NCBI GenBank assembly: GCA_008632985.1
Contig: QPGO01000289.1
Coordinates: 1 to 64,000 of the forward strand
Length of the DNA stretch: 64,000 bases
From: Psammoneis japonica
Taxonomy: Eukaryota
Direction: 5' to 3'
Below are positions 2,073-57,073 of the stretch, piece by piece. Every line of letters starts with the position of its first letter. Position 1 is the stretch's first letter. The notes beneath the pieces were generated by a model. It ran no database searches. It was not told where the DNA came from and saw only the letters and a program-made list of their open reading frames with translations. The position numbers were made by a program, and so were the translations under genes.

Positions 2073-4779
2073 GCTCTCTGGCGTTCTATCGTCTTTTGTC
2101 AACTGCACTGTTGGGCGGTTGTACAGTACAAGCAACAACTGAGGTGTAAGAGATGGATATGAAAAGCTGATAATGGAACAAAGATATAACAAGCAACACT
2201 TACAAGCACGATCAACGACGACACGGCAACTTTTTCATGAAAATGAAGGAGTTGTGAGGTTTTGGTTGTGTCCCGAGTGAATTTCCAACGAACTTCGTGC
2301 GTACGTCACATCACTTAACGACGTGACGTAAAATGAACGAATAGGAGTTCAATCCCCGACTCGAGCTACTTAATGTACTGTGTTACAGTATGTACTACAG
2401 TACCGTATGGTTGGTGCGACTATTTTAGACCTATGTCTTGTCTACGCTAAATGAACGACGAAATGATTACTATCATAGACAAGACATTCAGGGATGAGAT
2501 CAATCTTTCAATCGCTGGTCAGCTTGACTCTAGCTAGTCGTCATCAAATTGTCTTGTCGTGAACAACATGTCGTGTTCTCTAAGTGCAGACTTTTACTTA
2601 TTGAACGCACTAACTTTTTAGATTATGTATTGCCCCGTTTGCTGCCGTCTGCTCGCGTTAACATGCCCCCCCCTCACAGCAGGATTCCAGATTCCAGTTG
2701 ACGGAATTTGCGCACCGTACACACACCATCACCATGAGAATCATCTTTCGTTTCTAGAGCAGACAGTTTTGACTTCAAATGAGCAACATGCCAAACAAAG
2801 AACTGCAGTCCATCATTGTCACTTCAGCCAAGAACAATGACTGGTGCTTTGGAAACCCTCACTCAGAGAGCATCGTTTGTTGTGTCCTTTTTGTGCTTCC
2901 AAAAAGAAGAAAGTCTTGACGGACAGTTCCCAGGATGCTCGCCAAGTTCTGGTGACTCGGACCGTGACTGCAACGGGAGCCATGTTTGCCATCTTTCCAT
3001 GCCTTTCAAAACACCAAAGAAGACATCAATTCGGCGGCCTCCAGGATTGAACGAATCTTGACAACGACATTTTCCACGGATGTCGTAGTCAGCTTCAATC
3101 TCGCCTTGGGTCGATTTGACTGGAGTCTTTCCTTTTGAGTCCTGTGCACTGCTTTCATTGGGATTGCAACAACAAAATGCAGTGCTTGTCGCTGATGCGC
3201 TTGCTCCGCTTTGCACGGTTGCATCGCGTGAAGAAGCTGTCCGACGTGCTGTGGTGAGGACCACGCACGAATGTCATCTCGTTGCTTTGTTTTACATTGA
3301 TTTGAAAGAAATTGCTGTGCTGACTGTTGTGCGCTTGTCAGCATGTTCCATTGCTGGATGTTTGAGAGCGGGATCAGACCGGGCCCTTGCAGGGAAAGAG
3401 CTCTCTGGGGTTGAACTGGATGAGGTGCATGCGCTCAGTCACAAGCTCCAACACTGGAAGAGCAGGATCAGACCGGGCCCTTTTGGAGGGCAAGAGCTCC
3501 ACCATTCTGGACATTCAGAAGCAGAGTTGCCAATTGTGGACATTGGCAACCACAAACTCAACCCTGTCTTTGATGTCACCCTGCCCAAGGCAGGCACTGG
3601 AGAGCACAGCGACCACTGTCTCAACACAGGACAGTTGGGATGGCACGATCTCGGCCAAATCTTGGCATGCAATGGCGTTTGCATGCAAGTGTTCCACAGG
3701 CTCTGCCTCCACTCTGTGACAATGGCCAATGGTCTGTTGCGCCTCTTTGTTGAACCCTTGACAGCGCGATTTCATTGACGCCCAATTGCTCTGGTGAGAA
3801 GTTTCAGTGTGGACAAATGCTTTCTGTGATTGGTGTTGTTTCGCTGTGTTGCGCCACCTTTTTTTGGCTGTTGCAGCTTGCATCATGGTGGTCGATTGGG
3901 GTGTTGTTCCGACCGGTGCACACATTGCATGACTTTGTGTTCAGCCTTTGCTTGATGCTGTTGTCTGCTCCAATGCTGGCACAAATGTCCATGGCGTCCT
4001 TGGCGGCATGCTGTGCAATTTCTGTCCCCATTGTGCTCTGCATGTTGGATTGCTGGTTGTGGCAGAGACTGTCTCAGGTGATGCAAACTGCCTCTGCTTC
4101 CAATGCCTTGCATGCAATGTCTTTGTGGGGATTCCATTCTTAGACTCATGCTCTTCGACAATGAAGAGAGACAAGGCTCTCCGACTTGTGGAAAAACAGC
4201 AGCAGCGACCCAACAACCGGAAAGCAGGTGGGCCAAGAGCAGACTCCAGAGAGGAACTTCTCATGGCCAGGGACTGCCTCAGGTGTCATGCATGCAGTGT
4301 CTTTGTGGGAACTCCGCTCTAAGACGTTTGCCCTTCAACGATGAAGAGAGACAAGTGACAAGGCAGCAGCACCAACCCAACGGCCGGAAAGCAGCTTGAG
4401 GCAACACACTTGTGCAATGATCTCTCTGCAGAGCAGACTGGAGGGGAATTTCTCGTGGCTGGAGAGACTGCCTCAGGTGACGGAAACCACCTCCACTTCC
4501 ACTGCCTTGTGTGCAACATCTTTGTGTGGAGTCCACAATGTTCTTAGACTGTTGCACTTCGACTGGCAGCAAAACTGCTGCAACGCTCTCCAGAGAGCAT
4601 GCTCTGTCACAGAGAGGGGAATTTCTTCGTCCTCGTCCATGATGGCATCTGCCCAAACTCTCCAGTGGTGGGTGGTGGCATTGTTCATGCAGGCCTGTGC
4701 AATGTGTGAGATCACACATCTCTGTTTTTGTGCATTTCCTTGGCAGCACCAAACTCGCACATGTCTGGTTTGTTTGTCA

Positions 4780-5550
4780 AGAAAACAAGAATGATGCACT
4801 TGGATTGTTGCTTGAGTTTTCCAAAACATTGGGCCACAATGCCAATGGCGTGTCATCCTGGCAGAGCAGATGGTGTCCGGCCCTGTCCCAAGCTGTGCAG
4901 CAAATCATTTCAGGTTGCATGGCATCAAACAGAGCAGCGACATCCATTGGAGAATGTGAGGCCTCTCCAATTTCCTGTGATGTTGTTGTTGGGCTCCTGC
5001 AACCCTCCACAGAGAGCTCTCTCAAGTTTGTCAGTGCCTGCAGCATGGCTGCTGGGATCTCCATTGGTTGGGTGCATTCATCAAGAACCAGCCTTTTCAA
5101 GCTCGCAAGTGACTCCAGCTCCCTTGGCAGCTCTGCAACGCCAGAGCAGCTGCTCAGTCTCGACTCTTCAAGATTGACAAGATTCCCAACAGGAGCTCCT
5201 GGCAATGCTTCAAGATGCTTGCACAGCAAGATGCACTCAACCGCATCAAATTGGTCAACAGGCCAATTTCACTCGGAAGAAAAGTCAACCTGGAACAACC
5301 AAACAGAAAAAGGAAAAGCAACCCGTGGACATTCCCAATTTCTCTGTGCAGCTGTGCAAGGGACTCGCAACCACAAAAGTTCAAGTGTTCCAGTTCATGC
5401 AATTGTCCAATTTCCACAGGCAGTTGCTCAAGACTCATGCAACAAGAAAGATCCAGCACACAAAGTTGCTGCAATTGGCCAATTTCTGGAGGCAAACGGG
5501 CGAGATTCTTGCAGTGCAATGCTTGCAAAAAAACAAGCTGAGTCAACATT
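4780..5550 (-). pseudogene. Leucine-rich repeat gene remnant (plant-NLR-like LRR units)
   Basis: LARLPPEIGQLQQLCVLDLSCCMSLEQLPVEIGQLHELEHLNFCGCESL, and LEALPGAPVGNLVNLEESRLSSC in a shifted frame. Confidence 0.8.
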
Positions 5551-6784
5551 GGTGCAGTGTGATGCTTCTCACCGCAGTGAAACTTTTGTGGCCACTTTCG
5601 ATTTCAGCATTGCGCCTCACATGCTCTTGCATTCGCCCAGCTGCCTGTGAGAAAGAGCTTGGAGAGCTCAATCAGAAGAATCCATCTCATTGCCACAGAG
5701 ATGTTCCTTGTTCCCACACTCTTCTCCAATGTTTGAAAGCACTTGAGACAGAGTTTTGAAGGCTGGATTTTCCCATCAGCATGGTCGTCATGCAGAACTT
5801 GGTCTCTGGGGACATGCAGAATGAAAAAACCTTTCACAATGCCGCAGTGCCACTGACATTCATCCACATGATCTTTGGCCCAACTGGCGGCATGTCCTCC
5901 CTTTTGTCATTTTTAGACAAGTCAATGCTGTGTGGCTGGAAGGTTCATCTTACAAACACTTCCACATTTGTGCATCTGTTGCATGTCCAGCCTGTTGCCC
6001 CCCTGTCTGTTGGCCCCAAACATGCTGAGAATAGCCTCCATCATTGCAGTGATCTCATCCTTGCTGTTCTCCCATTGAGTTTTGGTGGCCTCTCCAATGG
6101 CAACAGCAATGCCATCTTTGAACGGGTTGACATCATGCCAGTCATCGAGGGTGATGGGCTCGACGCATCATTCCTGCAAAACTTGTCAAGCAGCAACAAG
6201 CCCTGTGGATCATTGACTTTGTCAGGTTGTGTGAATTGATCATGTGCTGTTGTCAATGGATCCTTGAGCTCCTTGAGACACAGATCAGGATCATCTTTTT
6301 CGACAACGTGCCACCGCTGTGTCACCCCCTGTCACACAGCCATTGACGTTAACTGCCGTCATGGCGGAAATGGCTGCAATGAATGCATTTTTGTGTTTTT
6401 GAAGAGAAGTCATGGGTTTGCTTGGATCTGTGGCTGATGCTTTGCACAGAGTGTTGACAGAGAGTGCAAGGTTGATGGCTCTGTTGATTTGATGTGCTTG
6501 CTGGCTTGCGCTTCATCTCTTGTGCTGGCTGTGGTTGATCTTCTGCACACGTCTGAACGCAACCATCCAATTGATGTCAGATTGATGGAATCTGGTGCTG
6601 GAATCTTGCCAGGGACATGTTGTGGAGAGAGCATGTGACTGACCAAATAAAAAGAAAACCATGGAAAACAGACAGACATGATGGCCACTTTTGAGAAAAA
6701 AGCAAAAAACCATCACGTGCACAGCAAACCACGGCAGCACCATGGAGACACCACTGTGTTCATAAAAAGTGACCGTCGCTGGGA

Positions 6785-7245
6785 ACTGGGACAATGTCAC
6801 ACAGTCAAAAGCACTGACATGAGGCGACACAAATCTGCCAAGCATGCTGGTGGTGTTTGTTTTTTGGCATCACAATCTAAAACTCTTCTTGTTGCAACAC
6901 TCTGTTTAGATGGGCAGCATGTTTTTGTGGTTTCTCTGTGACTGGGCTGTGTTCACAAAGCAACCCTCACTGGGACAATGTCACATGGTGCAGAGCATGG
7001 ACACAAGGCAACACGAATGTGTTGAGCGTGATGGCTGTGTTTGTTTTTTGATGTTGTCTAAAATTCTTGTTGCTGCACTCTGTTTGGATGATTTTGTGTT
7101 GTTTCCATGTGACTTGGCTGCACTGTGCACTCATGAAGCCACCATCACTGGGTCAATGTCATGTGGTTGGCATCATGGATGCAAGGCCATGTGGGTGCAT
7201 CAAGCATGATGGTTGTGTTTCTTTCTGGTGTCATCCAAAAGGTTG
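6785..7245. repeat. Degenerate tandem repeat, ~180 bp unit, about 2.5 copies
   Basis: ctggg(a/t)caatgtca recurs at ~6787, ~6970 and ~7148 with similar downstream sequence. Confidence 0.7.
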
Positions 7246-7339
7246 CTGGGCTGTGCGGTGTGGTTGAGTGGCAGGAACAGCTGGGGGTTGAGTGGATGCA
7301 GCAGTGGCAGCAGCAGCAGCGGGAGATTGTCTTGATCTC

Positions 7340-8520
7340 AAATCATTGTTTGTGGTGGCATTGGGCAAATCTCATCCTGGTGCTTCACTGGAGCATGCTT
7401 CCTCCATTTTGTCCCGAGCTCCATTTGTTTGATGTTGGGGATTCCAGGAAATGGGATGACCTGGGGTGCCACCTGCAAGAGCTCCATTCTGTTGCTGTTG
7501 GTCCCGGGCTTTTTGAGTTCTCTTGTGGCGGTCGCACCTTGATCCTCCTCCCAGCAAGACACCTGAATTTTCATGTCAGTTGGCAAAGCTTTTGTTGCAG
7601 AAAAGATGTGGCTCTTGTGGACCATGCTGGGGGGTGAAGTGTCGACACAATGAATCAAGTTTCTTGTTCCAGTCTTGGAAGTCTTCCTCATCCATGCACA
7701 GTGGCAGTGGCAGCATTCTCGTTTTCATTCAACAACTCCATCATTTGCTTGAAGGCACAGACATTGGAGTTTCTGCATGGCTTTTTCAAGATGTCGCACA
7801 TCCGGTCACAAGGGTTCTTTGTGTGCCCAACTGCAAGAAACACAAACTGCACCATTTGACAGAATCTCTGCTCAACCAAGCAGAGGGCCAGCCAAAGAAC
7901 CATTCTGTTCTTGTTCTGACTCCAGCAGTTGTCCATGACAACAGCAAGCTTTGCTCGAATTTGCTTTGCTGTTCCCATCATCATTGACCTCCAAACACCC
8001 TTTGTCCTTTGGATGCTTCACAATGAGTGTGATGCGACATTGTTGCCTCCTTTTTTGCCTTGGCCCTCATGGCACACACATGCCAGGAGCAAGTTGTCTT
8101 TCATGTTGACAAGTCCAAAACAATTTGCGTTCAAAGGAGAAAAGTGGTGAGCATCGCCAGATTGCTCATTGCCAAGGTGTGGAAAGTCCATGTTTTCAGA
8201 GTGGTCACCAACAAGCACATCAACAAGTTCCTGTTCAAGGCATTTGGCAGTGAGAGAATTGAGCAGTTCTCTCTGAGCAACAGCCTGTTGGACACAGATT
8301 TTGGCTTTTGCCGCTGCCTCCTCTCTCCTCAGACATCCATTCACTGGAGTGTTGCTGCTGTTCAAAGGACAAGGTGACACCAAGAAATGACAAAAAGCGC
8401 GCGACAACACAAAGCAGTCAGAACAAATGTCCTCCCTGGCTTTGGGACAAACCAGCTTTGGGCAGCTTCTCTTCCAGAAAGAACGGAAAGTTTCAAAAAC
8501 AACTGTCTTTTGTGGCTTCA
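7340..8520 (-). mobile_element. Degraded DDE transposase, Sola-like (DNC-QNKN / GHT family); probably extends up to ~9300
   Basis: EDICSDC, DHSENMDFPHLGNEQSGDAHHFSPLN, ACVCHEGQGKKGGNNVAS, VMDNCWSQNKN and FLAVGHTKNPCDR; stops and frameshifts present. Confidence 0.75.
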
Positions 8521-10728
8521 TGTCTTTCTGTGGCTTGCGTCAATTCAGTCGCCCCTTTGTCATTCTTGAGCTTGGCTTTCCATCCTTGTTTGCCAACCCA
8601 TTTGTCCAGCAGCTCCTCATCGTCATCCCCAGCCCCTGCTCTGACTTCCAGTTGAAAAACCTTGTGGCTCAAGGAGAAGCAAGTTCCATCATGTCTTTGA
8701 AAAAATGTGCAACAACGTTTCCACGTCTGCCTTCATTTTTGCATTTGATGACTCACCCTGTGCTGTGCCAGATTTGCCACACCAACTTGAGGTTTTGTGG
8801 GCTTCCTTGGAGCAGACAGCGCACTTGAAAAGACCATCTTGGAAGCACATGTTTGTCCATTTGAGAAAGTGCCCTCCAACAGTGGCATCTGCCTTGCTTG
8901 TTGAGTGCAGTGCACAAAAAGAGGTGTTTGAACAGCCACAGGCTCTGGACAAATCAACAGCTTGTCTGATTTCCTCGCACTTCCTTGTCTGAGGAAACTC
9001 AGAGCCGAGCAAGGAATTCCCTGTGATCAAAAACCCCAAATGATGCAGTGATTGGCACATTGCCAATGACTCTGTTTGTGGTGTTGCTGTCAAATTTGTG
9101 CTGGAAAACTGTGCACAGTTCCAGCACCTGTCGTCATGGAAATGGAGCTCCGTCGTTGTGGGATTCCACACAAGAAGCTCCAGCACATTTCCTGCACAGT
9201 TCATGAAGAGCTGCTTGCATGGCTGGACAATTGCCTGATTTTTGAAAAAAAAAAAACCATGTGACCTGCCTTTGTCAATTCTTTGGTCCTGCCAGGTGCA
9301 AAGAAGCCCAAGGCCACTTCTTGGAGGCAAGTGATGGTCAATGAGGGGGTGTTTGCAATTGTTGTGTAAAAACTGCTGTTTGTTTTGGCAAGAGCCGTTG
9401 TTGTTAAATAAAGGGGCACACAAAATCCAATGCAAAATGTCTGACTGGCACAACAGGTGCGTTCATGCCAGCAGCTGGTCGTCAGCCTCATGCCGGCAGC
9501 TGCAAACGTTAGACTGCCTGCGATTTTGGGGGGGTCAGTGACTCCAAGAGAGGGGGAGAGGGGAGAGGAGAAAGAAGGAGGAAGAGGAGAAAAAGGAAGG
9601 AGAGAGGAAGGGGTTGCGAGGGCAGCGAGCTTGATCTAAAAGGCAGAAGTGGTTTGAAGAGCCATCATCAATTCTTTCTCCCGTTTCACCACCCGATGTG
9701 TCAGATCTCCGGGTGCTCCACTGCACGCGAAAGTTCCAGTAAATCTCCTCCTGTTTCTGGATTTTCTGCGCGCACTTCGTTGCGCGCGACTTTGGATGCG
9801 GCATGGCGCGTTCTCTGGAGGAATTACTGGAGAAACAGGGTTTTGCTGGACACATTACTGGAATTTTCACCTTTTCCTGGGTCAATTGCTGGGTCGTCCT
9901 TCTCGGAGATTGCTGGTTTTCATTCCTGGACGCCAAATTACTGTCATGCATTTCTGGGTTTGAAGGTTCCTCCAATCTTCTGGGGGACGGCCCATTTCTG
10001 GAACACCAGGAATCGGTGCTCTCTATTCCTGGACTATGTTTCTGGTAGAGCATTATTCTCAACTATGGTGCAACGCATTTAAATGCTACGGTACTGACAA
10101 CTATGACATCAACAGAGAATCAATTAAAAGATACAATTAAACAAACTAGCACTCCACCACGCACTTTCTCGCGATTCTCAATGCAGAAAACAAACTTTTA
10201 ATCGTCAAGTCTCCTCGGTTTTCTTGCCCTACTAGGCCTATTAGAGGTGCGTCTCCGTCTTGTAGTACGCGCCATCATCCTGAGACTTGTTCGCAAAGGA
10301 TTCATTATGGTTCTGGCTGCAAGAATGGTGGTCGCATACATTGTTCTTTTGTACCTCATCGGATGCTCTGTGGCAGTGTATGTAAGAGGGAAGAACAATT
10401 GGTGTGAGTCGCCAGAAAAGGAAAAGAGAACTATTCTTAGGACGACTTACCGAATGTTCCCGTTTGCGGTCGATTGCGTCGTCTCCTCTCGGCTCCGCTG
10501 AAACGCAAAAGGCAGAACTATTGAGGATACTTGGAAAAGGATATACATACCAAGAAAAACCAAGCCAGTACGTACGTGATGTTGCTCACCTTGTTGTCTG
10601 CTTCTTTTAGTTGATATGTTGAGTTGTAGCCATCTCGTCTTTTTCGCCCTTCCTTTCGTCAACATTGTTCTCTTCGTCCACTTCACCCCGACATCCATTC
10701 ACTGCCCCTGCCATGAAGGGCTCTACCA

Positions 10729-11110: not shown

Positions 11111-14039
11111 CAATGAACTTGCTGAAGCAAATCAAACAGTGCTTTCCTGGATCTGCGGCCAAACAACGGATCCCGAGGCCATGGTATCGCTGCTTCTTGG
11201 ATTATGATGGTCTTGTGCTTTTTGGATGATGGTTTTTCGTTTTTCTTGGGTCAAAATTACAGCATTTATTTTCAAGGACATATAAATTTATATTCAAAAT
11301 TTTGGTAATTTGAAATTATGTTTATCTGTATTAATGTGCGTATACCCAATTACATGGATATTCAAAATGCGGAATGTATTGATACCTCTCAAAAATCGAG
11401 GGTGACGAGCGTTTGAATAAGTTGTGTATTCAACCAGGATTTTAATTTATCTTCCCTCAACGGTTGCAAGGAACGTGCAGGCAAGACAGAGTGCTGCTCG
11501 TCCGTCCCAGACCCCCTCTGCTCAAGACATCCCGTCTCAGCACAGCATGTGTGAACGGTGATGACAACCCATTTTGGCACTGTCCAGAGCTCTTGACTTG
11601 CTGCCACAAGGTGATCTGTGGTGGGTTTGCTCAAAGGGATGACAGGGTGCATGTTGTGGGTGACCACAGAAAATGTGCAGCTGGCGCAAACAGGAGGGAG
11701 TTGTCAAAAATGCGAAGTTCAGCCTGGCACCCCTGCATTGTTTGTGCGAGGCGAACACAAACCACATTGTGGCCACAGCCCAGCTGGCTGGACACAGACA
11801 AAGGCACCAGAACCAGAGGGCATGCCCAGGCTCTGCAGATGGGGGAACCCTCCTCCACCGAGCCAGCACTGCCCCCATGGGCAACAGCCAGATGAGAAAC
11901 AAAATTAGAGAGACGGGGCACACACTGCTGCCAACTTTCTTTGTTTGGTTGAGGAAGATGAGGGACCTGTGGATCCTCCCTTGGAGTGCCAGAGAGGGGG
12001 TGGGGGTTCTTGACTCACCCACCAGACTCCTCAAACTGTGAAAGGGATGCCAGCAGAACATTTTTCCAGAAAGAGCACCAGCAAACAAAATCTTGGCATC
12101 AGCCACTGTGTTTCATGATGGCACACAGGCTGGGAGAGTGGCACTTCAGACAAGGATGCCCAACTGCACCCGCACCTGCAGCAGGTGGCTCAGCTTGATG
12201 CAAGTCTTCCAGATCAAAAGTGGAGCCAGATGGCAAATGTCTTTGGACGGGTCGCTGAACAGAAGAGACACCTGGCTTGGCAAAAAGGCAGAGAAGTCAG
12301 GTTTGCTGAAATTGAGAAGTTGAAGGCAAGGATCAAAGAGCCAGGGCCTGGAAAGAAAGCAGGCAAGAGCAGATCACTGGCAGGAACAACAAAAGCCAGA
12401 AAAGCAAGTTGGCATGTCTTCACATGATTCCCAGCCAATGGGCACAAGAGCTGCGATGGCTTTTGGGGGGACATTGCCCCCATCTTCACCACCACAATTG
12501 CAGTGCCAACAACTCTTGGGCAAATCAGATCACCAAGGACAGGCAACTAAAATGGCCTCATCTTGGAGAACATTCTCCACCCAAAAGTTCACAAAGAGCA
12601 TCAGAGTTGACGATGTTGTTGCTGACTTTCTAACTTCTGGAGGGGAGCTCACGTTGCCTCTTCTCCAATCTCAATGAACCCATCTGACACAGGTGCTGTT
12701 GGCTTGCATGTGTTTTACACAGAAAGAAATGGTCAAGAGCTGCACAAAGAAGCTGTTGAAACATTTGAAGTTGATGGGATCACTTGTCTTTTTGTGTGCT
12801 TGATGTTTGGAGGAGTGGCATCATGTGTGGTGCATGCTCGCTCCAATTGGCAAGTTGTTGGTGGTTGATGGAAATTCCCTGAAAGAAGAAAAATCAAGCA
12901 AAGCTCACCTTGGGATCATTTTGTGACTAAACTGAATGAAAGAATCCAGGTTGAAGCAAGGTGCCTCAGAGCACGAGTGCAAAGATGATGACTCTCAAGC
13001 AACACCTGTCTTCCCAGCCTTTCTGAGGGCCAACCTGTGGTTGTCTGTCTCCAAAGCTCAGCATTGAGTTGATGCAATGTGGTGTCCCATCTCTGCCATT
13101 GTTTCAGAACATTGCAAGTGTGGTTGAATTTCTCCATTTTTCCAAAAACTGCGTGTCCTTTTTGGTTGGAAAGAACAAGGCAAACACAGTTGCTGCATGT
13201 CAGCAAACTTCATTGCCTCTTGAGGTGTTCAACACTTGAAAGGGGGAATGTTCTGTTGCATCTGCTGCTGGGCTGGGGCATCTTATGGCCAAAACACCAC
13301 CACAGGACAAACCAAGGCAGTTGCAATGAATGATCTTAAAGCCCATCACCCCTGGGTCACAGCAAATTGGCAAATTGGCTGGGAACCCTCAGGGATGCAG
13401 CAATCTGGACAGACCCCTCAGCTGACAAAAGTTTGGTTTCTTTGTCCTCACACTTGGGGTGCCCATCTGTTGTCCAGGTGGAAAATCATCTGCTTGCAAC
13501 CTGGGGCAATGCCAGGCCAAAAAAAAAACAACTCCAGATGAGCCAAGGCAACTGCAATGAATTCTCTCAAGGGGCAGACTTTGAAAGCATGCTTCTGGGT
13601 CACACAGTGAGTCAGCCAGAACTCTCAGCTGACGACCATTTGATTTGTTTGTTGCTCTTGGTCTGGGGCAATGTTGGGCCAAAAAAATGCCAGAGGATGA
13701 GCCAAGCCAACCACAACAAATGCTCTTAAATTCTGCCCCTGGGTCACAGTGAGTTGGTCCTCAGAATTCCCAGCTGATGACTTGTTGGGGTGTCCGCCAT
13801 TGTCCAGATGGAAAGATCAAGTCTGCCTCTGCTGTCAGGCTGGGGTGATGTCAAGCCAAAACAACACAAGACAACCCAAGCCAACTGCCACTCCACAATT
13901 GTGGCTGAAACCAACCCAACCAAGCTGTGATCAGCAGCTCAAGAAGTTTGTGCCTGTGGGCAAGTGGAGGAAACTGAGAGTGCAGACAATTTGTCAGAGG
14001 GAGCTTTTTCTGCTGCTGGCCAACACTTGTTCTTCAATG

Positions 14040-14880
14040 CTTTGGGATTGTGTCTGGGGACAGGAAGAGTGTGCTCAGAAGCTTGGGGTGCAAACCATTT
14101 TTTTGCATCAGTTGGAAGCAACTTTTTCCACTGGCTGACACCTGGCCATCACACAAGAACTCTGCACACACAGAGGCTGCCCTGCCACCACAACCTCAGT
14201 CAAGAAAAAACCAGCCCAATCTGTGCTCAGCCCTTTGAGACCATTCCTTGGGACATGGACAGTGAGCTCAGAAGACAAGACTGCAAAAACTTTGGCAGAA
14301 GTGACTTTTTCTGCTGGCTGACAGAGCCACTTCACCACCAGGGTTCTCTGCACACCCAGAGGCTGCTCTGCCAGCACAACCACATCCAACAAGAAACCCG
14401 CCCAAACTGTGCCCAAGCCTTTGAGATTGTGCACTGAGATGTGAAGATTGTGCTCAGAAGGTGAGAGTGCAAAAGGTTTGGCAAAAGTGACTTTTTCTGG
14501 TGGCCAAAACCTTGGTGCCACCAGGTTTCTCCACAGGCTTCCCAGACTTTGCTCTGGTGCCAACACAGCTGCAGAGTCAAGCAAACCACCCAAACTGTGC
14601 TCAACACATTGAGGTTGTGTCTTTGGACATGAAGAGTGTGCTCAAAAGAAAAAGCTGCAAACACTTTGTCACAAGTGACTTTTCTGCTGGCTGACACCTG
14701 GCCAACATGCAGCTCTGCACTCACAGAGCTGCTCTGCCACCACAACCAGGCAAATTGCTTTGCACACTTCCCAGAGGAGGCTGCTTTGCCACCACAACTG
14801 CAGTTGAGCAAGCCACCTGAACTGTGCTCAGCCCTTTGAGATGTTGGTCCTTTGGACACAAACAGTGTTCTTGAGTGAGG
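14040..14880. repeat. Degenerate tandem repeat family A, ~185 bp unit, 4-5 copies
   Basis: Recurrent ctgtgctcagccctttgaga / gtgtgctcagaag / aagtgactttttctgctggctgaca. Confidence 0.7.
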
Positions 14881-14904
14881 AAGAGGAGGAGGCACCTGCA
14901 CCAG

Positions 14905-42480: not shown

Positions 42481-42547
42481 GGTAAAACCCATGGAAAGGC
42501 GAAGGCGCATAGGAAGTCAGTATTACAAAGATCAACAAACGCAAGCG

Positions 42548-45590: not shown

Positions 45591-45738
45591 TGACGACACA
45601 ACCCTAACCTACAGTGCCATGATACAACACACAATACACATGCCTAAAGGTGCTTTAAGCGATGATTACACAACAGACTAGCCCAAGAGTCTACGAGCAT
45701 GGGATAAGGTCGTTACAGACCCGGAACTGAGGACAGAG

Positions 45739-47374: not shown

Positions 47375-48119
47375 TACCCAAAAACAATGAATTACAGGAT
47401 GCAAAAGGCACTGATAGAGAGTTGGTAGTCGTATTGTATTTGAGACACAACAGATGCAACGTCGGCTTCGACCCCACCAGCTGTCCCTGCGAAGATAAGA
47501 AAGATGATTCAAGATGCCATCAGAAAAATGTGAGCATCGGGTTATGAGATGGCATGAGGTACGTACTAGCGACTGAAAATGTGCGGGATTCAACTTTTGA
47601 ATGAGGAACGAACCAAAATAAACGCTTTCAGTTTCTCGAAATCGGTCAAGTGGGGGACTGCGGTACTCAAATAGCGTAGAATTCTACGTGTCGTACTTCG
47701 CCGTGTTGTAAATCGAAATCACGTGGTGAAAGCACGGTGAAACTGACAAGTGGCGGAGAACGTCCAAATGACAATTGGAAGGAAAGTGACGCTGTCGAGC
47801 TTGTCCTAGACACATGTTGTCCGATGTAAATAGAAACTTTCGTTCAGAAACTTGTCACAACAAATGTTTTGGACAATTCCCAAGTTCACCACGGCGAAGC
47901 ACGGGAAATCACTCGCCAAATTGCCGCGCAAATCACTGGCAATCATCCAGCGACACTTTGTAGAGCTGTGATCAACGAATGACTTCCATTCCGACATCGA
48001 ACTAGCACAACCTGTTGTAAGATGTGTCACAACAAAACTGTCATTCAGCAGAGTGTTCCTCCAATTGTCAAACGTTGTCAGAAGCAGTTGTGGCTTTCCA
48101 CCGTGCTTTCGTCGTGTTG

Positions 48120-51100
48120 TCAATTTTGCAACACGGTGAAGTGTGCACGTAAATTCATGCCAGGTTCTACTGCAGTCCCCCATTTGATCAACTGAAAGCG
48201 TTTGGCAGGCCCCCTGTCTAGTCTCCAGTCTGCCTCTCTCTGGAGCAGATTTGAAGTCATGCTTGTTGGAAGAGCGATCGGTTTTTGCAGTCTTCTTCCA
48301 ACACTCAGCCAGCCCTTCAGATTCGGAGAAAAAAGCAACCGTTCTAGTCCATGAACGTTGCCAACCACATTGTGCGCCGTCTCCATTGCTGAGTTGAAAA
48401 TGTGATTGTGCACACTCTCCAAGCTGAAAGACTGCGGTTGACAAGCGCCTGGTCCTTTCCACAGCTCTCTCGACTTGACTGGCTGCAGAGTGTCAATGGA
48501 AGACTCGATTCCGGCATCCCTGCTGAAAAGAGGGACACCCAGTCCTGACAAACCATTTGCCCAGGCTGCAACAGCCAGTCTTTTGACTTCACTGTTGAGG
48601 ATCCTGACATCGAAAGCAGCGTCATGAGCAAGAATGCAAATCTTCCTCCCTTTTCGCACCCTGTTACAAAACGAACAAAAGTCCCGGCAAACTGCATCAA
48701 ACAACAAAGCTCCATCCAAGACTTCGCCACTGGCCAGGTCCGCTCCCCCCTCCCTGAGGAACTTGTCTGCAATTCCTGCAAGATTCTCAATGACAGGGTC
48801 AAGTTGCACCGGAGGACAGCAACATGCAGAAAACTGATCCTCGGCATTTGAAGATCCAAGGACCTTGGTGGCAATCTGAATTGCATGGTCATCTGCAGAC
48901 AAGCCTGCAGTTTCCGCATCCAGCACAAGGAACAGACTGTCATCGCTGCCAGAACCTGGGGCAACATCCTGAGAGCATTTGTCGACATTTGACATTGACT
49001 TGACCTTGGCTTTCTTGCGTGTTGTCTGGTTGGGTGCTGCTGAAGCCAAAGATGGCGGTTCACAAGCCTTGACATCCGATGTTGAAATGTCGCCAACAAC
49101 ATTGTCAGACGCTGAAACGAAACGACTTCCGTTGGCTTCGAAGACCATGACGGTGTCTGACACCCAAGGCTTGATTTCCAGCTTTCGTGATTCGATTTCT
49201 GGAGCGGAGGATTGAACAGGCTTTAGCCCCGAAATGTCTGGAGATCTGAGACTTTTTGACAAAGACTGAAACAAAACTTCGACTTGGTCATCACAGTCCC
49301 CATGATTGGCCTGCAAAAACGAGACATCGCGCAACGTCCTTGCTGCGGACGCAGCGTTGTTCTCTTCTGATTCTGCACTCCAGTTGCCAAATGGAGCCAG
49401 ACCCATGCAGAGACGCAGTCCATTGGCACTGCACGCAGAAGCTTTTCACATTGGTTGAATGTTTTCCACTGCGACCAGCTCGCACATTGATGTGCTTGGT
49501 GAGCTCGGTGCAGGCATCATTGCTGGCATCTTGCATGCTTTGTTCTTGACAAAGGATCAACCAAGCAAGGCAGCTGGGAACACCAACTCGAAATGATGAG
49601 AAAGGTTGACCACCAAGCCATTGGTCAAACCAGCCGGCCGCAACCCAACCATCTGGCCTGGACCACACAACTCAAAGTCTGCCATTGCTGCTGGAACGCC
49701 ATTGTCTGTTTCGCAAAGCACATTCAAACGTTTCATTGAATGTGATGTGGGTGCTCTTGTCAGGAGAGTGCAGCAACAACTTGAGTTTCTTGTCTTGTCA
49801 CTCTTGTCAATGCCACCGCGCTTCTTCACAGACTGACCAATGCGACCACGAAGCTGGTGCAACTGGCTTGGGCCAAACCCATCTGCATCTTCGACCCCCA
49901 AAATTGCAGCGGAAGGGATGTCAGCTCCAACTTCTAGAATGGTGGCACCCACTGGGACATCAACATTCAATTCAGGATCTGCAAATGCGCGCAGCTGAGC
50001 TTCTCGATCAGAAACTGCCATGTGCCCATGAACCATTCCAACACAGTTGGGCCCGAGGGCTTTGGCAAGATGACTGCAGCAGTCCACAATGCCAGCCACA
50101 GTGTTGTTTTCAGTCTCAAGTCCAATTTCTCCCAGATTGCCATCATTGTTGTCAAAGCATTGACCCTCTCCTGTTCTTGGAAGAATCCAAAATACTTTTG
50201 CTCCCACAGAAACGTGTTTCATGACACCATCTGCGACTTTTTTGAGCTTCTGCCCGTTGACAATGTGTGTCTGCACGGGTTTGATTCCTTGGGGCTTCAA
50301 ACAAAGAAGAGAAACATCCACGGATCCTGTTTGCACAGCAAAAGGCACCACGTTGTTGCAGCCTCCGAGTGCAAGCATTCTTGGCATGGGGGTTGCTGTC
50401 ATGCAGAGGGTGTGAGCCACACAGCATGACAGCACTTCCCACTGTGCCACGCCAAACCGTTGTTCTTTGTCAACAACAGCCAGAGACAAGCCAGTGTTGT
50501 CGTCTCTTGGTCGAGTGGTTGGTGACAAGCTGGCAAGCCCATCTGCAACATCCTCTGTGAGAAGTGCATGAGTTCCAACCAAGAAGAAAGCCTTGTCTTT
50601 AGAGCATGCCTGTGCCAGTCCCAACAGCCTCTCTCGCTCTGCGCCCGTCACACTCCCAGTGAGTGATTCAACGTGAAGCTTTCACAGAGGATGAGCCGAG
50701 GATGCCAGAAAATGTCTGTTTGGTGCAGATGCAAAATCAGCAAGAGACCTGGCATGCTGGTCAATCAAAATGGTGGTGGGCGCAAGAATGGCAGCGACCC
50801 TTCCTCCTGTTTCAAGACAGCCCAAAGCCAAAAGATGTGCAACCACAGTTTTCCCTGAAGAAACGTCTCCCTGCAACAGTTGTTGTCATCTGATGCCGCA
50901 TCTCTCCATGCCTCATCCAAGCACCTCTTCTGAGCATCAGTGAGTTTGAAGGGAAGCAATGAGATGGCAGCTGTGACCAAAGGGCTTTTTGTCCATGATG
51001 AAGACAAGAGCGCACTCTTCTCGTCCTCCATTTGTTTCATGCTGCTTCAAAAGGGAGCTTTGTGTCGCCATCAAGTGAGGGCTGAGTGGGCTTGTTGCGT

Positions 51101-52140
51101 GCACAATTCTTCAAACACCAAACACATTCTTGGCAGACCAGCCGGCCCTCCCTTGTGGTCAGCAACTTGTTGCGGACAGCGCGCCAATCAAAGCGCATCA
51201 GCAAGTGAACAGGGCCAACCCATGGCCTGCAACGTGGTGGACGACAAAACTTCAGGAACGCAATCGGAAACTTCTTTTCCCAATTCCAAGGCCTTGTCCA
51301 TGGTGTTTTTCATTTGAGATTGTGTCAATTGGTCTGTCAAACAACATTTTGGCTCAATCTGCAACGCCTCTTTCATTTCATCAAGCAGCTTGACCCAGTC
51401 TGGTTGAACAATTTCAAAACCATGTTTGGTCTCTTTGAGAACGCCAGACACAAGGCGTCTGCTTCCGGGACTTCCAAACAATCGTTGGCAACCCGCTGCC
51501 ACCCCATTCGATTTCCCGCAAAAATGTGCAATTGTCAGAGGCCCTTGGCTTTTGTTGTGATGTTGCACTTTGAAAATGCCAAGTTTGTTTGACACGTCAC
51601 CACTGCAACACATGGTTTCAACAGCAACTTGCAAAGCAACTGCTTGACCAGGTGTGGCATCCAATGCAACATTTCGAAAAAGCTTGGTGCGATCAACAAA
51701 TGACGTTGGAAAATGCCAAAGCAGAGACCGGATTGTGTGCAAATTCAAACGAGCAAATGCCTCGGCTGTCTTGGGGCCAACACCGCGCAAGGTTAAAATG
51801 GGCTTCTCCAATTTGTGTGGTTTGGAGACAAACTGTTCTGCAAGGTCAACACTGGCAGCAGCGTTGTGTTGCGGCATCTCAAGAGATTTTCGACGTCTTG
51901 CAGCGGTCTCTGCAGGTTTTGTTTTTTTGCTGTTTCTGTGGCTTGCAGGGCGTGTGTGTTTTCCTCTTGCAGGAGTGTGATCATGAAGAGCCGTCTGACT
52001 TTCTTTCTGTTCTTTCTCTTTCAAGTTCCTGCCAAGTCAACAAGACAATGCAGGCAGTGAGATGAAATGCTCCGCAAATGCCAATGAAGATTTCTGAAAC
52101 GAGCATGCGAGTGCCAGCACATGCCTCACTGTGGCCATGA
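48120..52140 (-). pseudogene. recG: RecG helicase with an in-frame C-terminal DEDDh 3'-5' exonuclease domain, hypermutated
   Basis: LRGVGPKTA, LPFKLTDAQ, LQGDVSSGKT, APTTILIDQH, VGTHAL, VVDKEQRFGV, MTATPMPR, SQLHQLRGRIG and ELCGPG; then LDAETAGL, AHDAAFD, IDTL and AHNVVGNV. Confidence 0.9.
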
Positions 52141-53820
52141 CATGTGGACTGGGATGAGCAATTGCTCCCTTGCCAGCAGAAGCTCTCATGTTCTTTTGTG
52201 CAACACATTCCGTGATTGCTTGTTTCACAAGAGGACATGGAAAGGACTTTGATTTTTGAGTCCATTTTTTGCCAAATTCATCTTGTTCAAAAAAAGATCC
52301 ATCATCACCGGGTGAGGCTGCCACTCCCACATTGTCTTTGCTCAAATGAATCAATGTTGATTGATGTGATTGCAAGCTTTCTCCATCTCAGTTTCATCAT
52401 CATGGTGCTTCAGCATGTGGCCGGATTTGGATCTTTTTGTGATGATGTGATTTTGGTCGATCGAAGGAAATGATGCAATGCCGCGAGGTCCAATGCTTTT
52501 TTCGCGAGGTCCAATGCTTTTTTTGCCAAGTCAAATTAAGTTGATGGCCTGCTTCTCCTGTGTGTTGTGGCACGAGACAATGTGCGTGGCCCATTGTGTT
52601 TGTTGTTGATTGTTCAAGTTTTGTGTTGCGTGAAAACACAAAGCACTTCAACTCATTTTGCTCTTGCCTCCACAATCATCAACAAGGAGATTCAGAAGCA
52701 CAGGAAGGCAAGAGCAAAGCAAGTGGGCAAAATGAAAAATGAAAAAAGGGCAATCCAACATGTGACACACAGCCACAAAAAGAAAAATGCACACCTTGCC
52801 CTGCAACACAACAAAGCTGGCAGCAAGCAGAGCAGCCACTGCAGACACATGTGCTCCAGCTCCATGTGTTGCATCGTGTGATGCTGGCCCAATGCAGAGC
52901 TCTGCCCAAAAGCTTTGAAGTTGTCACTCCTCCAACCAACAGCTGTTTTCATCTTTGCACCTCTTCACAGTCAAAGCATTTGAAAATCCACCTGCCCTGC
53001 ACCACTCTGCAGCCATTTGAAAAGTGGCTTTGTGAAAAAAATGCCAAAGCTGTTGAATGGATCGCCCAACAATTGCACTGCAAAATGGCGCAAAATTCCG
53101 CCAAAGTCACACAGAAATGCGTGTGTGCAACATGCGGCACACACAGCAAAAAACACCAGCATCACAGCTCAGGAGTGCAAGGCCCCAGCTGCAGCTGGCT
53201 GAAACAAATTTGTCAGCAAGAAGGGCCATGATGTGGTCAAAAAGGAGGCACGATGACCAGCTCTTTCATTTTTCAAAGAAGATGTTGTTTGAGTTGATTG
53301 TCGCAATTGTGGGCAAATTGAGAGTGAACAGATTCAGCATCGTCAGACTGCCACGTGCACCAGAACAAAAAAAACACAAAGTTCAAGGAGCCACCGGCCC
53401 TTGCCAGTGTCTTCTTCCACACAGCTGGTGTGCTCTTGCTTGGCGGGCCTGGCAGGTTTGGTCAACTTGTCCCAGCGGGGGCAGACATTTTCAAACATGT
53501 CAGAGCCAGTGTTGGGGCGACGAATCTTCCAAATGCAAGAGGCTGGCCAATCGATCATGAGGGTCATGGTGAAATTGCACATTCTTTGTTGATTGATGCT
53601 CTTGTCAGTTGGGGGGAACTGCCCAGCATGTGTGTGTGAGGATGTCATGTGCAATGGAAAATGGGGATTTGGAAAAATTGGTTGTGCTCTCTGTCCGTCA
53701 CCAGGCATCGGAGGTCAAAATCTGCCGCAATGCTCTGTTCGCACTGGTGCAAAGAACCGTCATTAAAAGAATGGAAAGAGACATGCAAGAGATGACATTC
53801 TGTTGCACCCACTTCAATGT

Positions 53821-55135
53821 TCAAAGCACTGGTTTGAACACAAAGTTGCACTGAACCCCCCAAGCAATCCACAAGTCATCAGTCATTTCAAGATCCTGCC
53901 GCTGGTGGATGCCACTGCTCATCATGCCACATGCCTTCATGCACTTCATGGCTCACTCATTTGCCGACCAATCACTGGCTGCAGCTGCTGAGACAAGAAC
54001 CTCTTTGCTGGTAAATTTTTTGTCACTTTTTCAAGAAAAGGTTGGAGAAGCAGCTGCCCTCCAGCATGCCAAGCAGCTGAAATGCTCCTGCACCCCTTGT
54101 CCAGAGCATTCGTGAAGGGCAAATTGGCTGAAGCACCATGCTCCTGAAAATCTTTCTGTGCTTCTGACACTCCACTTTCTTTAAAGTGTTGAGTGTCAGA
54201 CACTGCACTGGTTCACAAATCCCACCCACCCAGCCAGCCACACAGCTGAAAAAAAAACCCACCCTTCTCTGCACTGTTTCCACAGTCAAGTGAAAAGGTG
54301 AGTCTGTGCAGGTTGGCATCCAATGGCTTGCCCATGAAGTCAACATTTGCACTGTCCCACATTTGCACCCTTTTGTCTGGGTGGTGATCTCTCCACTTGT
54401 CCAAGTGCAACACCATGTCCTCTGCATGTGTGTGAAATCTGGGCCAACTGCACAGCATGGTGACAACTTGCGCAAGCTTGCGATGGAACACATCCCCAAG
54501 TGTTGTTCTGCTCACACCGTGGGCACTCTTTGCATCATCCTGTTGCAGTTGGGATGTTCGCTGCACCATTTCAAAGTGCAGGGGCCACTCTTCAAACCAA
54601 CTCATGAGAGTTGTCTCAGTGTCCATCATCTTTTCAGCACTTCCATTGCACATGGGACTGACTGCCACTTGCAACAGCAGTGGTTGCATGTCTGCAAAAC
54701 CCATTCATTGCATGTCACTGTTGGCTCTCTGTGCTTGCATGCATTCTCATCATCTGGTGTGACCCATGGACTTGCTGATTGACAAGATCTTTGCTTTTGA
54801 CCAGATTGCCTTGGTGATGCTCCCATCATGCCACATGCCACAAGCAATTGCAGCCTTCTTTGAGTGGTGCCGCCCAGACGAATCCACAACAAAGTGGACA
54901 TGATGCCCTTCTGCAACAAGAGCTTTGAGAAAACCACAGAGCTTGTTCTTGGCATCATGCACAGATGTTGAACTCCAAAGCTTGAAACACAACCAAGAAA
55001 AATCCACGCCAACAGCTGGTTTTCCCTGACAGTCAGCAGCGGTGGCTTGCTTCTGGCATGTGCTTTTTTGTGCACTCAACTGCCTGGCAGTTTCTCAGTC
55101 ATGTGCAGAAATTGCAACAAACCATCCTTTCCCAT
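53821..55135 (-). mobile_element. Degraded PIF/Harbinger-like (DDE_Tnp_4-type) transposase preceded by an XPG/FEN1 N-terminal-like segment
   Basis: MGKDGLLQFL, VGVDFSW and HFVVDSSGRHHSK; then FEEW, MWDSAN, KGGFFFQLCGW, VSDTQH, LDKGC, NE*AMK and WGVQCNFVFKP. Confidence 0.75.
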
Positions 55136-55269
55136 TGCTGCCAATCAAAGCATCTGTGCAATTGTGGCGGTGTTGACAACAGACTGCCCCAGTGCTGTGA
55201 GTGATTGAGACAAAGCATGATCTGCTGCTTCCATTCTGACTGCACTCGCGTTGTCATCATCATCAGTGG

Positions 55270-56870
55270 CGTGTCATTCCCACAGTTGGTGTGGCATCTG
55301 GCATGAATTTTTTGTTGTTTGAATCAATGAACTGATGGAAGGACAGGCCAAGTGCAACAATTTTTTCAGAGTGTCCATGTCACCCAGTGGTGCAGTGTGA
55401 AGTGCAGATGGCGCAGTGGGATGAAACGGCGTCATGTGGGTGGGGGGAACAGGTGGGATCTGATGGTTGGATTGGCAAGTTGTGAGATTGAAGTTTGGTG
55501 GAGCGGCAAAGAAGTTGGTCAGCAAGGGATTTGGTGGCCACAAGACTGAGACTTTGAAAGGCCTGTTGGCTTTGGGTGGTGGTGTGGTGTGTGAGACTAA
55601 ACCTGGTCAAGGTGATGGTGTTCCAGGCAGTTGTGGCAGTGGGAAAAAGGCCGGTGGGGAGAGCTGGGCATTGGCGCAGCAGGTGGTGCAAGCAGATGGG
55701 TGGTGAAAGGAGGATTCCAAGTTCCAGAGTGGGAGAGGTGGGGGGGGGGAGTGGATGTTTTTGGGTGTCACCAAAAAGGAGGCGATGAGCGAAGCATCCA
55801 GGTGAGCCAATGTGATCAATGGTGAATGGAACAAGGCAGATGCCAGCAACATTTGAGGGAGTGATGACTGCAGTGCTGCCCTGAGTTTTGTGGGTCCCAT
55901 GGAGTTTCCATTTCGTGCTTGTGTGGTGTGCCTTGGTCACAGGGTCTTGAGTGGGGGCAGGCAAGCCAGGTGCTGGAAGTGGCGGGGGTTTGGGGATGGC
56001 GACATTGACAGCAAGGCAGGAGTGGGTGGTGGGTGCTGCAGTGGAGGAGGCAGGAGTGAACTTGACCCCAATGTTGGCAGGGTGCTTGAGTGGCGAATGT
56101 GGGATGAGGTTGGTGGGTTCATGGCGGACGTCTGAGGAAGGCCATCATGCAGGGAGTTGGACAGCGTGGGGCATTGCAGCTGAGAGAGCAGCAGCAAAAG
56201 GCACAATCTCCCATGCCAGAGCAGAATGGGCAAGGGATGGGGGCAAGCCAATCAGAGGAAATGGCAGGTGTGGCTTGCGTTGTGGCGTGAGTCAGAAGAT
56301 GGCAGGGGACAGACATTGGAGTGTTGTGGAGCCGGTGAAAGAGCGCACAATGGAAGACTTGCCATGGGTGAGAGGATGGATGAGAGTGCAGCTGTGACAT
56401 GTGGCAGGACATGGTGGTGGAGGTGGTTGAGTTGGTCAGCACAATGTGGGTGACACATGGTGTGAGAGAGGGTCTTGAGTGGACAAGATTCAACCAGAGC
56501 AGGGAGTGAGGGGGGTGGGGGGGTTCCCCAGCCCCCAGCAACGGAATGCTTTGTGCAGACTGAGGGATTGTCTCAATGTGACCCAAGTTCAGAGAGAGCA
56601 GGCACAGAAGGGAAGCATGAGTCGGGGTTCATCAGTGGAGGAGGTGAGGCCGTGGGCTGCATGGCAGAGGGAGCAGGCCCGATGGGCGGCGAAGAAGCAG
56701 GGGGCGGGTGGTGCTGGCTGTTGTTGATGGACACCCGACACCACCTGCAGATGCAGGGAGGTGGGAGAGTGGCAATGTGTGTGGTGGAAGAGGGCCTGGG
56801 TGGGCGGTGAGGTGTTGAAGGAAGGTGTGGCAGTGGCGTTGGGTGTCTTGTTGGAAATGTGACGTCCATG
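55270..56870 (-). mobile_element. 5'-truncated non-LTR retrotransposon remnant with a restriction-like endonuclease domain
   Basis: HLPASAGGVG (post-RT LP..GGLG), VRHEPTNLIPHSPLKHPANIG..LAVNVAIP (decayed RPAD..DVT) and LVPFTIDHIG. Confidence 0.65.
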
Positions 56871-57073
56871 CGGTGTGTTGTGTGCGTGCTGCCGGCGTGC
56901 GCAGATGGACACCGAGCACAGATGGACACTGAAAAAGGTCATTTTGGGCGTTTGACCTTCGTGCGAGTCATCCGAGAGCTCGCGCCGAAAACAACACACA
57001 AAACGACGCGAAAAAAAAAAAAAAAGAACGATCTCGGATCGACGACAAAGCCCTTACTGCTACAACAAACAAT

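Follow-up and report, generated by a model that had tools for sequence, protein, structure and literature searches.

Background

In ascomycete fungi, repeat-induced point mutation (RIP) is a hypermutation by transitions that works in sharply bounded blocks; it ruins duplicated or non-genic DNA and can be recognised by the dinucleotide signature left behind. Here we describe a pattern with the same traits in a stretch of 64,000 nucleotides (nt) from the diatom Psammoneis japonica (assembly GCA_008632985.1, contig QPGO01000289.1, positions 1 to 64,000 of the forward strand; hereafter the window), in which five chromosomal islands have lost nearly all their TpA dinucleotides to CpA and TpG; RIP, in contrast, makes TpA from CpA. 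Enzymatic base editing is directed against selfish nucleic acids also by the APOBEC (C>U) and ADAR (A>I) systems, the latter with a preference for a 5′ T/U that resembles the context found here. These enzymes act on cDNA or RNA, whereas in the window chromosomal DNA with introns and tandem arrays has been mutated in place.

The closest counterpart comes from the chlorarachniophyte Bigelowiella natans. According to the main text of a recent preprint (Mettrop et al., bioRxiv, 10.64898/2026.01.13.699255), 231 of the 302 nuclear single-nucleotide mutations recorded in mutation-accumulation lines fell into two integrated viral regions, and 230 of these 231 were A>G or T>C changes, every one at TpA. 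The genome of B. natans holds 124 clusters that are poor in TpA and rich in CpA plus TpG and are enriched for transposase, reverse-transcriptase and unannotated genes. A transcriptionally silent single-copy insert mutates in place, and the authors propose deamination of adenine in DNA by an ADAT2-like enzyme. Neither CpG nor diatoms are mentioned in that main text.

The islands of P. japonica share with this system transitions that are confined to TpA, yield CpA or TpG and are sharply local; like the clusters of that genome, they include transposase-derived and unannotated sequence. They differ in the host, which is a diatom (stramenopile) and not a chlorarachniophyte (rhizarian), and in the degree of erasure, since the observed/expected ratio (o/e) of TpA is 0.45 in the viral insert and a near-saturated 0.03-0.07 here. 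The targets there are viral inserts, whereas no viral genes are recognisable in the islands, which hold host-type gene copies, satellite-like arrays and the remnant of a transposase. CpG is lost along with TpA in the islands, and de novo events were observed in B. natans, whereas the diatom signature is known from the sequence alone.

In dinoflagellates a TET/JBP enzyme makes 5-hydroxymethyluracil (5hmU). This mark is concentrated on repeats, where it overlaps with 5-methylcytosine (5mC), and it has a silencing effect on transposons; older work cited in the same article found T to be preferentially replaced in TA and TC dinucleotides (PMC11572971, available text). For diatoms, our full-text literature searches returned no report of TpA hypermutation, and the available text on mutation accumulation in Phaeodactylum names CG, CC and TG as mutable contexts and reports nothing at TpA (PMC6604790). 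The first-pass annotation of the window had known of no description of such a process in diatoms; the kind of process has been known since 2026 from B. natans, and the diatom case is new within the literature searched.

Results

TpA-erased islands

After refinement of their borders by the first and last TpA, the five islands sum to 26,324 nt (Table 1) and contain 76 TpA dinucleotides, against about 1,120 expected at the background frequency of 4.26%. TpA o/e is 0.05 in the islands and 0.61 in the other 37,243 nt of the window, taken as background, so that five TpA-poor islands with normal DNA between them were found nearly at the coordinates at which the first-pass annotation had placed them. 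In 500-nt windows of the five blocks TpA o/e ranges from 0.00 to 0.2, while CpA and TpG rise up to 1.4-2.5. Over all islands CpA and TpG o/e are both 1.71 (1.16 and 1.18, respectively, in the background), a direction opposite to that of fungal RIP, as annotated, and within the four large islands (2.3-9.2 kb) TpA o/e stays at 0.03-0.07 and CpA and TpG o/e at 1.63-1.85. The longest TpA-free runs in the islands are 2308, 1619, 1457, 1416 and 1369 nt; the longest in the background is 163 nt (the gap of undetermined letters, N, at 59113-59545 left out). The borders are sharp, TpA density being back to normal 0-70 bp away from each of them, and no terminal inverted repeats, long terminal repeats or target-site duplications were found at the island borders (best local scores 18-25).

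The composition of the islands is that of DNA altered by mutation. Per 1000 dinucleotides they differ from the background by -39.7 TA, -34.3 CG, +29.9 CA and +38.4 TG; the joint loss of TA and CG (74.0) is matched by the joint gain of CA and TG (68.3), and the changes in AT (-16.7), GC (+12.0) and GG (+12.4) are the neighbour effects expected for T>C and A>G at TpA. CpG loss covers 34.3 of the 68.3, which is half of the gain, and none of the TpA loss.

Tandem-repeat copies within the islands, among them the three arrays of island 2, allow the change to be followed between sister sequences. In their alignments we counted 100 double mismatches of CA against TG; the control double transitions were far fewer (AC/GT 6, AA/GG 18, CC/TT 12, AG/GA 10, CT/TC 5), and the copies have therefore decayed independently and in place from a palindromic pyrimidine-purine ancestor. 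Where one copy retains a TA, partner copies read CA or TG in 16 of 22 cases, and where one retains a CG they do so in 16 of 26; TA and CG ancestors both contribute to the CA and TG of the islands. At the protein level, the remnant of a DUF7869-family transposase in island 1 encodes no tyrosine, against 3.6% in the aligned homologs. Mass balance, alternation between repeat copies, residual partners and loss of tyrosine agree and support the view, already taken in the first-pass annotation, that TpA was lost through destructive, region-restricted mutation to CpA and TpG, and neither through codon bias nor as a native composition.

Flanking context of TpA erasure

The surviving TpA sites reveal a dependence on the flanking bases (R, purine; Y, pyrimidine). 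Expressed as sites per kb in the islands over sites per kb in the background, survival is 0.005 for RTAY (2 sites left), 0.047 for the mixed class YTAY plus RTAR (27 sites) and 0.238 for YTAR (43 sites); the classes differ from the background distribution with a chi-square of 94.8 (p 2.6e-21), and the direction is shared by all four large islands. Sorted by the base 5′ of T with both strands pooled, survival is 0.012 for A, 0.036 for G, 0.113 for C and 0.135 for T. A purine before T on one strand is a pyrimidine after A on the other. All three classes are fitted by a model with two rates for the event on each strand, k where the base before T is a purine and k′ where it is a pyrimidine, with kt of about 2.6, k′t of about 0.7 and k/k′ of about 3.7. 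By this model mixed sites would mostly have become YTGY or RCAR, and the gain of this pair should exceed that of YCAY plus RTGR by 12.0 per kb. The islands gained +24.1 per kb of the first pair and +11.9 of the second, 12.2 apart, and the ratio of the first pair to the second is 1.47 in the islands and 1.27 in the background (p 0.007). The TpA process thus has an extended R-T-A-Y target, of which RTAY is erased first and YTAR last. This flank rule is new here and is absent from the available text of the B. natans preprint.

CpG loss

The first-pass annotation described the TpA loss correctly and understated the depletion of CpG in the same islands: 549 CpG sites are left, with an o/e of 0.34 against 0.99 in the background and a range of 0.18-0.70 among islands. 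CpG survival is flat across the flank classes (0.41, 0.39 and 0.32), and in 50 island windows of 500 nt the o/e of CpG shows no correlation with that of TpA (Spearman 0.16, p 0.28). In island 2 CpG o/e is 0.0-0.06 over 13-16.5 kb and near normal over 17.4-18.9 kb, and segments free of TpA with near-normal CpG occur, for example, at 17448-18447, 38416-38915 and 48831-49330. Since CpG loss follows no flank rule and does not correlate with TpA loss, two separate processes have acted, and the TpA process saturates first.

CpG loss with a matching gain of TpG and CpA is the pattern of CpG decay by cytosine methylation. The available text of PMC9998398 describes diatom transposons as CpG-methylated via DNMT5a, which would explain the CpG half of the signature in an ordinary way, together with its location on presumably silent DNA. 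Decay of 5mC is unable to remove TpA and accounts, as had been annotated, for the CpG half only.

Two side observations concern CpG. At the very end of island 5 (~56900-57055) TpA is absent though CpG is plentiful. The first 1000 nt or so of two metagenome loci (L039 1-1000 and L040 1-1000), with CpG o/e 0.0-0.13, TpG 2.5, CpA 1.3-1.4 and TpA 0.3, carry a strand-asymmetric pattern of CpG loss unlike that of the islands.

Support by sequencing reads

A public sequencing run (X1) contains 84% of the words sampled from 42000-51900, and its contigs reproduce the island sequence with 0 differences at 43098-43960, 49721-50203, 51285-51782, 52609-53080, 53058-53722 and 53976-54614. X1 may be the assembly's own sample, and this agreement therefore rules out an assembly error and not a read-level one. 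A second run (X2) is cDNA-like, as judged from spliced joints; its depth is zero over 43312-45303 and 52608-57255, and no conclusion was drawn from these blanks.

RecG-like gene copy in island 5

Island 5 contains a decayed copy of a RecG-like helicase gene (P0001) of 853 codons with two in-frame TGA codons and a change of frame between the wedge and DEAD domains. None of the 853 codons encodes tyrosine, which makes up 1.4-2.1% of the 4 closest homologs, while cysteine reaches 3.5% against 1.2-2.0% in these homologs. At 27 positions that are tyrosine in homologs the copy has cysteine in 5 and histidine in 2, and never tyrosine or phenylalanine; at 124 arginine positions it has cysteine in 14 and glutamine in 9. 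No stretch of at least 24 nt is free of CA or TG. The two dinucleotides are balanced (CA 443, TG 418, p 0.41), and targeting coupled to transcription is thus not indicated.

A diverged version of the same gene is present in the reads. A 3.8-kb contig of X2 spans 47304-47487 and 48219-51802 with 315 differences and 22 gap letters (~91% identity), and the changes from window to read over all X2 contigs are C>T 111, G>A 99, A>G 81 and T>C 80, with 75 transversions. In the few snippets of the diverged copy seen in the two runs, TA or CG stands where the window has TG or CA. X2 omits 52027-52124, which the window keeps, and the RecG-like copy has thus retained an intron. The X2 contig enters the 5′ region of the neighbouring glutathione reductase gene (47304-47487) with 1 difference in 184 nt and then skips 731 nt of the window (47487-48219), in place of which it has 41 other letters; at the left edge of island 5 there may thus be an insertion in the haplotype of the window. 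Over 51285-51782 the depth of X1 is 68.2 for the island version and 62.3 for the diverged version. These observations would fit a hypermutated RecG-like copy on one haplotype of a diploid and an intact, expressed copy on the other, a paralogous segmental duplication being a possible alternative. A search of metagenomes with the exonuclease open reading frame (ORF) gave 96 pattern matches, of which 0 were confirmed.

Island content

All ORFs of at least 90 amino acids and six-frame read-throughs of every island were scanned against Pfam with a cut-off of E <= 1e-3, and the read-throughs added no families to those found with the ORFs. Neither the ORFs nor the read-throughs of the islands gave viral hallmark genes, islands 2, 3 and 4 and the segment at 52.4-57 kb gave no protein-domain remnants at this cut-off, and Rfam and tRNA scans gave no matches. 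The first-pass annotation had seen transposons, repeats and dead gene copies in the islands. One DUF7869 remnant, confined to island 1, satellite-like arrays and decayed gene copies bear this out in part, and much of the remaining island DNA is unclassified (Table 1). The tandem arrays of islands 1 and 2 have periods of 180-193 nt overall. This is near the nucleosome repeat length, by chance or through a link to linker-directed methylation.

Table 1 Coordinates of the islands and of the features recognised in them
Feature	Position (nt)	Strand	Description
Island 1	2756..9367		TpA-erased: 14 TpA, o/e 0.03; CpG o/e 0.33
Second tandem pair	4094-4455		Island 1
Leucine-rich-repeat gene fragments (decayed gene copy)	4780..5603	-	Island 1; Pfam LRR_14 E 2.3e-12, LRR_RPS2 E 2e-06
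Tandem repeat, ~181 nt	6785..7330		Island 1; copies differ chiefly by CA/TG alternation
DUF7869 transposase-family remnant	7691..8017	-	Island 1; Pfam E 5.1e-17
Island 2	11448..18920		TpA-erased: 32 TpA, o/e 0.07; CpG o/e 0.25
Three tandem arrays, periods 186-193 nt	14034-14690, 14913-15850, 16245-16925		Island 2
Island 3	38416..39141		Short (0.7 kb), TpA-erased: 3 TpA; CpG o/e 0.70; divergent intergenic region
Island 4	43294..45581		TpA-erased: 8 TpA; CpG o/e 0.18; fills the gap between the ADH-like gene and the glutathione reductase gene
Island 5	47831..57055		TpA-erased: 19 TpA, o/e 0.03; CpG o/e 0.42
RecG-like helicase copy with C-terminal RNase_T exonuclease	48123..52036	-	Island 5
Exonuclease domain of the RecG-like copy	~48579-48929	-	
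Helicase_C domain of the RecG-like copy	~49836-50045	-	
DEAD domain of the RecG-like copy	~50385-50879	-	
Wedge domain of the RecG-like copy	~51287-51790	-	
G-rich, strand-skewed right end of island 5	55000..57055		G 767, C 365; TG 267, CA 172; without recognisable content

The description of the process as RIP-like, in the sense of repeat-induced, could not be upheld. The islands share no family with one another in the window, even when compared in transition-blind purine/pyrimidine space, and the same search found no unmutated counterpart of them within the window. Apart from their own tandem arrays they are single-copy in the window, and a 536-nt direct repeat of 98% identity at 25022-26082, within a normal gene, is untouched, with normal TpA and CpG; for these two reasons repeat induction, a requirement of RIP, is unsupported here. 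A high-copy repeat with normal TpA adjoins island 3: at 38000-38663 X1 reaches a summed word depth of 7262, compared with about 100 in the vicinity, and loose ends are numerous at 38196-38365. Not every repeat in the genome is thus TpA-erased.

Relatives of the DUF7869 remnant

In a representative library 782 homologs of the DUF7869 fragment were found at E <= 1e-3, and an alignment of 31 homologs led to 228 confirmed loci in public metagenome contigs, of which 80 were kept. Members of the family are not equally TpA-free, an outcome that by the first-pass annotation would have spoken against its reading: whole-locus TpA o/e is a normal 0.50-0.85 in 77 of the 80 transposase loci, and the three lowest values are 0.26 (L003), 0.47 (L042) and 0.48 (L063).

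The 6,024-nt contig L063 carries the signature of the islands in parts. At ~418-2551 and 4934-6024 its TpA o/e is 0.04-0.15 with CA and TG at 1.3-1.9 and CpG mildly reduced (0.39-0.86), and a normal segment lies between them. Its transposase ORF of 643 amino acids contains 0.5% tyrosine, against 3.2-4.5% in six full-length homologs, and at 11 columns with a tyrosine majority among 27 full-length homologs it has cysteine in 5, histidine in 5 and methionine in 1. At columns conserved to at least 0.7, its 23 differences comprise 8 of the kind expected from TA, none of the kind expected from CG, 6 other transitions, 8 transversions and 1 multi-step change. The surviving TpA sites number 0 RTAY, 10 mixed and 6 YTAR in the poor segments and 21, 97 and 41 in the normal one. 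L063 is a second, independent case of the same signature, on an unrelated contig with the same transposase family.

Among 134 hits of at least 150 amino acids to the DUF7869 family, three database proteins (P0399, P0421 and P0418) have no more than 0.5% tyrosine and show the tyrosine-poor, histidine- and cysteine-rich signature of TpA erasure. P0399 is 99% identical to the ORF of L063; P0421 is distinct from it (66% identity) and has 0 tyrosine, 6.1% histidine and 5.3% cysteine.

Another 45 windows with moderately low TpA in the other loci were rejected as instances of this process. Their relative survival is 0.64 for RTAY, 0.36 for mixed and 0.23 for YTAR sites, a pattern opposite to that of the islands, such as the avoidance of stop codons in coding sequence would produce.

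Discussion

We consider it most probable (about 0.6) that the islands were hit in place by a domain-restricted hypermutation of TpA to CpA and TpG of the same kind as in B. natans, the likeliest chemistry being a TadA/ADAT-type deamination. Under this reading, diatom chromosomal stretches comprising a transposase remnant, satellite-like arrays, decayed gene copies and unclassified inserts would have been attacked until TpA was nearly gone. A TadA/ADAT-type deaminase, presumably recruited to silent chromatin in defence of the genome, would deaminate adenine in DNA at T-A-Y, each strand's event being about 3.7 times faster with a purine before T. A second, slower and independent process on the same domains would turn CpG into TpG or CpA, as from cytosine methylation of silenced DNA. 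Since transitions at TpA never create a stop codon, the TpA process would kill genes by missense only, through changes of Tyr to His or Cys, Ile to Met and Val to Ala, and the in-frame TGA codons of the RecG-like copy would come from the CpG process (changes of the CGA>TGA kind). In their natural substrate, tRNA-Arg, TadA/ADAT enzymes meet U33-A34 followed by C35. Adenine deamination is favoured because this context agrees with that of the islands, where a T on the 5′ side is obligatory and a pyrimidine on the 3′ side preferred; such an enzyme is also the candidate of the B. natans preprint.

Several points weigh against this reading. TpA is palindromic, A>G after T being the same event as T>C before A, so that the attacked base is not readable from the sequence and adenine cannot be separated from thymine as the target; the first-pass annotation went too far in calling the process adenine-mutating. 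Recruitment to silent chromatin is a step that we infer. The polarised spectrum is indirect, as no unmutated ancestor was aligned base by base, and the comparison with homologs polarises weakly. At 189 columns conserved in distant, mostly bacterial homologs the RecG-like copy shows 89 differences, of which only 4 are of the TA type, 12 of the CG type, 11 other transitions, 29 transversions and 33 multi-step; in the same codon-level test 28 differences were counted at 232 columns of a normal host gene. In the DUF7869 remnant just 2 of 9 differences at 39 conserved columns are of the TA type (Y>C, V>A), the others being 1 of the CG type (R>W), 3 other transitions and 3 transversions. Nothing recognisable as foreign or transposon sequence lies in three of the five islands. 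Finally, the read support from X1 may derive from the sample of the assembly and hence not be independent.

The main rival, which we hold to be unlikely, is an attack on thymine: a TET/JBP-type dioxygenase would mark T in R-T-A on silent DNA as 5-hydroxymethyl- or 5-formyl-uracil, and the oxidised base would occasionally pair with G and give T>C. The rival relies on a mutagenicity of 5hmU towards T>C. Owing to the palindrome, T>C before A fits every count equally well. Dinoflagellates, which belong like diatoms and chlorarachniophytes to the stramenopile-alveolate-rhizarian (SAR) supergroup, make a repeat-enriched, silencing-linked 5hmU reported to favour T in TA, and its overlap with 5mC (PMC11572971, available text) has a parallel in the islands, where CpG and TpA have decayed in the same places. 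5hmU, however, is an epigenetic mark not shown to be mutagenic and favours TC as well, whereas the islands show no loss of TC beyond neighbour effects (-8.8 per 1000). To our knowledge, and within the literature consulted, 5hmU is not known from diatoms.

Hyperediting of double-stranded RNA of the elements by an ADAR-like A-to-I activity, with the edits carried into DNA when transcripts were reverse-transcribed and re-inserted or served as templates for repair, is very improbable. Editing of both RNA strands would yield CA as well as TG, and the preference of ADARs for a 5′ U (10.64898/2026.01.13.699255, main text) agrees with the 5′ T found here. The RecG-like copy, however, retains an intron and shares a neighbouring gene with its diverged version, which argues that it is not a retro-copy, and the copies of the tandem arrays decayed independently in place. 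ADARs prefer a 3′ G. The 3′ neighbour preferred in the islands is a pyrimidine instead, as survival with A or G 5′ of T (0.012 and 0.036) is far below that with C or T (0.113 and 0.135). Erasure of ~95% of sites with strict TpA specificity far exceeds known ADAR editing, and in B. natans a silent single-copy insert mutates in place, as the preprint's main text reports.

That foreign (e.g. viral) DNA arrived already poor in TA and CG, or that TA was selected out, is still less probable and largely refuted. The sharp, insert-like borders and the lack of recognisable origin of most island content would suit it, but CA and TG alternate between repeat copies, a host-type RecG gene and a transposase are without the tyrosines that their families keep, TpA is normal in 77 of 80 related transposase loci, and the flank pattern is opposite to that of TA avoidance in coding sequence (RTAY 0.64, YTAR 0.23). 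An assembly or sequencing artefact limited to the islands is the least probable reading, for in spite of the N gap in the window and the possible common sample of X1 and assembly, X1 reproduces island stretches exactly and holds the diverged copy at similar depth (62.3 and 68.2), the same signature recurs in the unrelated L063 and in P0399 and P0421, and we know of no platform error that turns TA into CA or TG only inside blocks.

Hypermutation confined to TpA had been reported, within the literature searched, solely in one 2026 preprint on one chlorarachniophyte and without a known enzyme. The present analysis adds a saturated case in a diatom, an independent case in a metagenome, the separation of the TpA and CpG processes and a quantitative flank rule. 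The occurrence of the saturated end-state in a diatom and on an unrelated metagenome contig suggests that the process is widespread and not the curiosity of one alga. We propose, tentatively and with the odds somewhat against it, that an R-T-A-Y DNA-editing system may be common to distant SAR algae (diatoms, chlorarachniophytes and at least one uncultured organism). DNA placed in silent chromatin would be permanently disabled by it, and this could extend to one of a host gene's two alleles, the second remaining intact and expressed. The system would then act as a heritable, sequence-erasing arm of genome defence, parallel to cytosine methylation and chemically separate from it.

For some diatom species genetics, methylomes and chromatin maps are already established, which makes the mechanism testable. 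The flank rule provides a fingerprint with which to screen enzymes, to re-examine published de novo mutations and to scan other genomes. Islands of this kind also have practical consequences for annotation: they mislead gene prediction, which will return long spurious ORFs where TGA is the only stop codon left; transposons within them escape annotation by similarity; and they bias the detection of foreign DNA by composition.

Other features of the window

The normal stretches between the islands encode proteins with Pfam matches to SET, amino-acid transporter, CAF1, NAD synthase, ADH, glutathione reductase and HIT families. The named relatives of the 673-amino-acid transporter ORF are all diatoms (Attheya, Seminavis, Nitzschia, Mayamaea, Amphora, Thalassiosira, Cyclotella, Skeletonema and Epithemia), with identities of at most 58% and without a self-match; the host genes thus point to a diatom whose proteome lies outside the library searched. 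X1 contigs show many clustered differences from the window in normal host genes, at 40136-40223, 40503-40883, 42637-42784 and 45683-45793, where X2 equals the window; this suggests strongly diverged haplotypes or paralogues. The 433-N scaffold gap at 59113-59545 sits within a long ORF (57629-60709). The direct repeat at 25022-26082 lies within an ORF of 1015 amino acids (24385-27429) without a Pfam family. The 3′ part of the same ORF (26477-26640) and the 5′ part of the transporter ORF (33341-33503) contain segments that are ~80% identical and normal in composition.

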